A stretch of DNA of 64,000 nt from the NCBI RefSeq assembly GCF_030013205.1, contig NZ_CP122648.1; one strand, 5' to 3'. Made by a program: the position numbers and the translations under genes. This document shows positions 20,319-20,345 of the stretch, piece after piece. Under the pieces are notes generated by a model that searched no databases, was not told the DNA's origin, and saw only the letters and a list, made by a program, of their open reading frames with translations. This DNA is from Escherichia coli. GTDB lineage: Bacteria; Pseudomonadota; Gammaproteobacteria; Enterobacterales; Enterobacteriaceae. Positions within the stretch are counted from its first letter, which is position 1; every line of letters starts with the position of its first letter.

Positions 20319-20345
20319 TAAAGTTCTGCCCTTGCGCGCCGATAA
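20319..20345 (+). promoter_or_regulatory. sigma28 (FliA) class-3 flagellar promoter upstream of pdeH
   Basis: TAAAGTTC – 11 bp – GCCGATAA, a near-perfect match to the FliA consensus TAAAGTTT-N11-GCCGATAA. Confidence 0.7.

Follow-up and report, generated by a model that had tools for sequence, protein, structure and literature searches.

Does the sigma-28 (FliA)-like motif that precedes pdeH in a 64,000-nt stretch of Escherichia coli chromosomal DNA (hereafter the window) act as a flagellar promoter, and does its retention beside a deleted cellulose synthase (bcs) locus say anything about the motility of the lineage? The FliA-to-PdeH link is a cornerstone of the motility/sessility switch in E. 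coli and Salmonella, and the window holds genes for two c-di-GMP phosphodiesterases, PdeH and PdeK, along with remnants of the bcs genes. We therefore examined the motif, the two enzymes, and the deletion in turn.

We scanned both strands of the window for the sigma-28 consensus as printed in PMC2859248, TAAAGTTT-n11-GCCGATAA. The site upstream of pdeH matched 15 of the 16 specified consensus positions, with one mismatch and the canonical 11-nt spacing. Its parts, and the gene that follows them, are listed here:

20319..20326, plus strand: -35 octamer TAAAGTTC, matching 7/8 positions of the consensus TAAAGTTT and the same in K-12
20327..20337, plus strand: 11-nt spacer TGCCCTTGCGC, with the sole promoter difference from K-12, a G at 20334 (A in K-12)
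20338..20345, plus strand: -10 octamer GCCGATAA, matching 8/8 positions of the sigma-28 consensus and lying within the K-12 FliA ChIP-seq motif for yhjH (PMC4183435)
20346..20393, plus strand: region from promoter to start codon, with the predicted transcription start and a Shine-Dalgarno-like AGGA at 20382-20385
20394..21161, plus strand: pdeH (yhjH), encoding a stand-alone EAL-domain c-di-GMP phosphodiesterase of 255 aa, according to the annotation in a near-identical genome

The site lies on the sense strand for pdeH, ends 48 nt before the pdeH ATG (20394), and falls inside the 231-bp intergenic region that separates the divergent genes kdgK (19233-20162, minus strand) and pdeH (20394-21161, plus strand). 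Nowhere else in the 64-kb window did a sequence come within two mismatches of the consensus. Base composition predicts a chance count of 0.0015 for sites with at most one mismatch, taking both strands of the 64 kb together, and 60 shuffles produced zero such sites. The initial annotation, which had described a near-perfect match to the FliA consensus at 20319-20345, was thus exact in both coordinates and sequence. A second match to the consensus, at 42505-42531 on the minus strand within hdeD, has three mismatches; about 0.5-0.7 sites of this kind are expected, and we set it aside as chance level. A search for sigma-70-like promoters across 20100-21300, which includes the kdgK-pdeH intergenic region, found none. 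Folding of the predicted pdeH leader gave no significant RNA structure beyond shuffled controls (z = +0.95), and we dropped a riboswitch or attenuator in the leader on the basis of that value.

We compared this site across the Enterobacteriaceae by scanning one genome per species, which yielded 80 PdeH-encoding loci (66-92% protein identity) from approximately 25 genera, including Escherichia, Citrobacter, Salmonella, Enterobacter, Lelliottia, Leclercia, Kosakonia, Atlantibacter, Franconibacter, Siccibacter, and Cedecea. The promoter comparison covered the 78 loci with upstream DNA; for the other two of the 80, the fetched stretch contained none. TAAAGTT[C/A]-N11-GCCGATAA was present at every one of these 78 other loci, the eighth base of the -35 element being C or A, and the spacer was 11 nt long in all 78, with a sequence that drifts freely. 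When the loci were aligned on the motif, the two octamers alone were invariant, while the spacer and the flanks varied. The distance to the start codon was 47-57 nt in 77 of the 78 loci. In the remaining one, from Citrobacter amalonaticus S646, the promoter is kept and an insertion of ~190 bp separates it from the pdeH ATG; we considered this locus as an exception to the conservation and rejected it as such, since the promoter is present upstream of the insertion. The insertion, in the region 1239-1501 of the fetched stretch, is possibly a small repeat element, and it extends the leader to ~235 nt. Control regions put through the same scan gave best matches with 4-8 mismatches. Within E. coli, we found the 56-nt promoter segment in 5,409 of 5,426 complete genomes. 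The comparison thus gives a clean phylogenetic footprint, in which the octamers are fixed over ~25 enterobacterial genera and the spacer drifts.

The gene downstream of this site encodes a full-length PdeH that is identical to the K-12 protein at 252 of 255 residues and matches the Pfam EAL domain (PF00563) with an E value of 5.5e-32 (111.5 bits). E48 (of ELL), N105, E136, D158, D159, K179, E215, and Q235, which we take to be the metal-binding and catalytic EAL residues, are conserved in the window protein and in all orthologues that have a residue at the position. The three substitutions relative to K-12 (I96V, G99D, and F232I) all fall in variable columns of an alignment of 82 sequences; the isoleucine at 232 is unique among them, in a column that is itself variable. 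These features indicate that PdeH is intact as an EAL phosphodiesterase. At ~21162-21225, after the stop codon of pdeH and before the start of yhjG, there is a stable imperfect hairpin (-30 kcal/mol, z = -3.5) that overlaps the yhjG ribosome-binding region; it has no U-tract and so is not a canonical terminator.

The fliA gene lies outside the window, and for the remainder of the circuit we used the swine strain K_EC180 (NZ_CP062203.1) as a proxy. Over the first 32 kb of the window, its sequence differs at one position. From ~56444 onward the two are out of register through an indel, which shows that the window comes from another member of the K_EC180 clade and not from K_EC180 itself. In this near-identical genome, fliA, fliZ, fliC, flhDC, motAB, the che genes, flhBAE, and ycgR are annotated as intact, and fliA, fliZ, flhD, and flhC carry no pseudogene flags. 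As far as the annotation of the proxy shows, the FliA-PdeH-YcgR circuit is therefore complete.

Several other features of the window and its proxy are of note. The window ORF at 54859-56082 is intact (407 aa) where K_EC180 annotates a frameshifted hypothetical gene. Outside the window, K_EC180 has a pdeG (ycgG) gene interrupted by IS2 and a bluF gene annotated as frameshifted (2825-5684 and 7541-8751 of the fetched stretch); ptsG, pepT, and fhuE are likewise marked as frameshifted in this assembly, so that part of the calls may stem from indel errors in it. At 8839-9912 the window contains three tandem type I toxin genes of the Ldr family, with a repeat unit of ~483 bp, where K-12 carries just one ldrD/rdlD pair. 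A chu/shu haem-uptake cluster (chuA, chuS, chuT/shuT, chuW/hutW, hutX, chuY, shuU, and a haem ABC ATPase) occupies ~44351-53304, between yhiD and dctR within the gad/hde acid-fitness island.

The bcs locus is represented in the window by two gene remnants and the junction that joins them, followed by pdeK:

9999..10841, minus strand: 3' remnant of bcsG, a pseudogene whose N-terminal half is deleted (annotation and alignments)
10826..13882, plus strand: 3' remnant of bcsC, a pseudogene whose N-terminus is deleted (annotation and alignments)
10833..10841, no strand assigned: deletion junction, at which one copy of the 9-bp repeat CGCCGCCGG is left (alignment to K-12 and CFSAN018748)
13964..15952, plus strand: pdeK (yhjK, annotated as hmsP), encoding a full-length GAPES3-HAMP-GGDEF-EAL membrane phosphodiesterase of 662 aa

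Between two copies of CGCCGCCGG, each within an imperfect 16-mer, 10,309 bp have been lost, and the sequence at the junction reads …AACGGATCGCCGCCGGAAGGTGAC…. The loss takes the 5' half of bcsG, then bcsF, bcsE, bcsR, bcsQ, bcsA, bcsB, and bcsZ, and the first 417 bp of bcsC, so that seven genes are removed completely and two more are truncated. The deletion arose by recombination at the 9-bp direct repeat, and it is predicted to abolish cellulose synthesis. Among 5,426 complete E. coli genomes, 17 carry the junction, and every one of the 17 comes from swine or wild boar. The carriers comprise O139:H1 ST1 strains and strains named 'ETEC', among them O139:H1 ST1 edema-disease strains from France (PMC8798679) and, from South Korea, K_EC180. 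In the library searched, we found no relevant published account of the deletion for O139:H1 or edema-disease strains. In the E. coli collection, 126 places on plasmids matched part of the bcsG/bcsC junction query.

A sister strain, the Danish swine isolate CFSAN018748 (NZ_CP028192.1), keeps the whole bcs locus, including an intact bcsQ, and over ~17.7 kb of flanks only 7 SNPs separate it from the window. Relative to this strain, the bcs-deleted clade has no changes of its own in pdeK or pdeH; the substitutions E347G in PdeK and D143N in PdeH are derived in CFSAN018748 rather than in the deleted clade. The deletion is an independent, recent, and lineage-specific event. We checked pdeK for decay following the loss of bcs: relative to CFSAN018748 there was no clade-specific change, and with so few SNPs separating the clade from its bcs+ sister, the deletion is too recent for the retention of pdeK to inform on either selected retention or relaxed selection.

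PdeK itself is identical to the K-12 protein at 657 of 662 residues (99%). In K-12, BcsB and DgcC are binding partners of PdeK, which serves as a local c-di-GMP sink at the cellulose synthase (Richter et al. [quoted passage not shown] Both bcsA and bcsB lie wholly inside the 10,309-bp deletion. With its partner BcsB and its target BcsA absent, PdeK is thus left without its only characterised target, and it is not a demonstrated motility factor.

The initial annotation had reasoned that two intact c-di-GMP-degrading enzymes beside a lost c-di-GMP-dependent cellulose synthase would bias the strain toward motility. Its premises were borne out: the bcsG 3' remnant abuts the bcsC 3' remnant with 10,309 bp gone, and both phosphodiesterases are full length and nearly unchanged from K-12 (PdeH 252/255, PdeK 657/662). 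The bias itself is not supported by them, because PdeK acts locally, the lost bcs genes are effectors, K-12 is similar, and the deletion is recent. We consider it improbable that the retention of PdeH and PdeK together with the loss of cellulose synthase forms a coherent, possibly selected configuration that shifts the lineage toward motility. Both enzymes are indeed intact while bcs is deleted, but PdeK works locally, by way of BcsB, and it is PdeH that sets the global pool (PMC7397504; PMC5635695). What has been deleted, moreover, is a set of c-di-GMP effectors (BcsA and BcsE) and secretion machinery rather than turnover enzymes; since these proteins bind or respond to c-di-GMP and neither make nor degrade it, their loss should not lower c-di-GMP, and the deletion removes at most one c-di-GMP output, cellulose. 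That output could matter, as losing bcs takes away something that inhibits motility: both YcgR and BcsA/cellulose mediate the inhibition of Salmonella motility by c-di-GMP (PMC9275015, citing Zorraquino et al. 2013). Cellulose adds to this inhibition in Salmonella only at abnormally high c-di-GMP, however. The effect was described for cells with raised c-di-GMP, and pdeH is intact in the window. The cells in which Zorraquino and colleagues saw it in 2013 reportedly lacked YhjH. The flagellar regulon is apparently intact in the proxy K_EC180, as a shift toward motility would have it, but in the same genome pdeG is split by IS2, contrary to a general preservation of phosphodiesterases. Nor is the configuration distinctive, given that the promoter segment occurs in 5,409 of 5,426 genomes and that K-12, which shares the promoter, has an annotated bcsQ pseudogene. 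Finally, the bcs+ sister is only 7 SNPs away over 17.7 kb, and with no clade-specific change in pdeK or pdeH the retention carries no signal of selection; it would reflect a shortage of time.

We likewise think it unlikely that the bcs loss, fixed in a widespread porcine O139:H1 ST1/swine-ETEC clade, represents a pathoadaptive loss of cellulose. If it did, the loss might, for example, unmask curli or F18 fimbriae or alter gut colonisation, and PdeK, presumably with DgcC, would be an orphaned local c-di-GMP component, either decaying or gaining another target. CFSAN018748 provides a natural, near-isogenic bcs+ comparator for the loss of cellulose in edema-disease E. coli. The deletion is in itself a real, rare, and lineage-specific genotype of modest interest.

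Evidence that the motif works as a promoter also comes from the orthologous site in K-12, where the FliA promoter of pdeH is already known and has been characterised in full experimental detail. In an alignment of the window with K-12 MG1655, the two octamers and the 11 nt of spacing between them were identical, the ATG stood 48 nt from the site in each, and 259 of 261 nt of the intergenic region matched, the differences being one SNP in the spacer (20334) and one upstream. FliA ChIP-seq in K-12 identified the site TAAAGTTCTGCCCTTACGCGCCGATAAT, assigned to yhjH with a FAT score of 67, FAT being the fold-above-threshold score in the ChIP-seq table (Fitzgerald et al. 2014; PMC4183435). By RNA-seq, normalised reads for yhjH numbered 511 in motile wild-type MG1655 versus 2 in a fliA deletion (PMC4183435). 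Later papers credit the FliA dependence of yhjHp in K-12 to Ko & Park 2000 and Girgis et al. 2007. Sarenko et al. treat FliA control of pdeH as textbook knowledge, and they report that no GGDEF/EAL protein is more abundant than PdeH, their 'master PDE' (PMC5635695). The tie between pdeH and the flagellar regulon that the initial annotation had drawn is well founded on this evidence, resting as it does on an orthologous site with a FliA ChIP-seq peak and on expression that drops from 511 to 2 when fliA is missing. We infer that FliA controls pdeH in the window strain as it does in K-12.

A further entry in the K-12 ChIP-seq table, which contains probable false positives, is a weak FliA peak at proK with a FAT score of 1 (PMC4183435). 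In the window, a tRNA-Pro gene followed by two features annotated as RtT sRNA lies at 337-749.

A chance or vestigial origin of the motif, with pdeH driven by some other promoter (sigma-70 or sigma-S), is highly improbable: K-12 has many FliA-bound motifs that lie within genes and are transcriptionally inert (PMC4183435), but the pdeH site has an expected count of just 0.0015, is intergenic, sense-oriented, and invariant over ~25 genera, has no sigma-70-like promoter beside it in the kdgK-pdeH intergenic region, and in K-12 supports expression that falls from 511 to 2 without fliA (PMC4183435). We conclude that 20319-20345 is almost certainly a class-3 flagellar (sigma-28/FliA) promoter of pdeH, within a FliA-PdeH-YcgR circuit left unaltered by the independent deletion of bcs. 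At this promoter, FliA-RNA polymerase would recognise the -35 element TAAAGTTC and the -10 element GCCGATAA, 11 nt apart, and would begin transcription a few nucleotides downstream, at ~20352-20354 by the usual sigma-28 geometry, giving a transcript with a leader of ~40 nt followed by pdeH. FliA is freed only after completion of the hook-basal body and export of FlgM, and the synthesis of PdeH would therefore fall in the late flagellar programme, alongside that of flagellin and of the motor and chemotaxis proteins. An intact FliA-PdeH link in a porcine pathogen lineage confirms the conservation of a core circuit and adds no new biology.

These results can be set beside three groups of known systems. 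The first is cellulose-negative E. coli such as K-12, with its annotated bcsQ pseudogene: K-12 and the window lineage are alike in the predicted loss of pEtN-cellulose and in the c-di-GMP network otherwise retained. They differ in the lesion, which in K-12 is the annotated bcsQ pseudogene and in the window lineage the 10,309-bp deletion carried by 17 of 5,426 complete genomes. The second is the PdeK-DgcC-BcsB module of K-12. In the window, pdeK likewise sits directly downstream of bcsC and its product is 99% identical, but BcsB and BcsA have been deleted in the window lineage, so that the module cannot work there as described. The third is the set of sigma-28-dependent promoters. The closest member is yhjHp/pdeHp of K-12, at the orthologous kdgK-pdeH locus, from which the window differs by a G in place of an A in the spacer and by the upstream SNP; no functional difference is expected from these changes, the spacer sequence being one that varies among species. 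Other class-3 promoters (tar, tsr, fliC, motA, ycgR, aer, and trg) share the same bipartite TAAAGTTT-n11-GCCGATAA architecture, and with 15 of 16 positions matched, the pdeH site ranks among those closest to consensus. Its ChIP signal in K-12 (FAT 67) is the same as for ycgR and higher than for tar. Where it stands apart is in its product, a signalling enzyme, whereas the other class-3 promoters serve structural or chemotaxis components.
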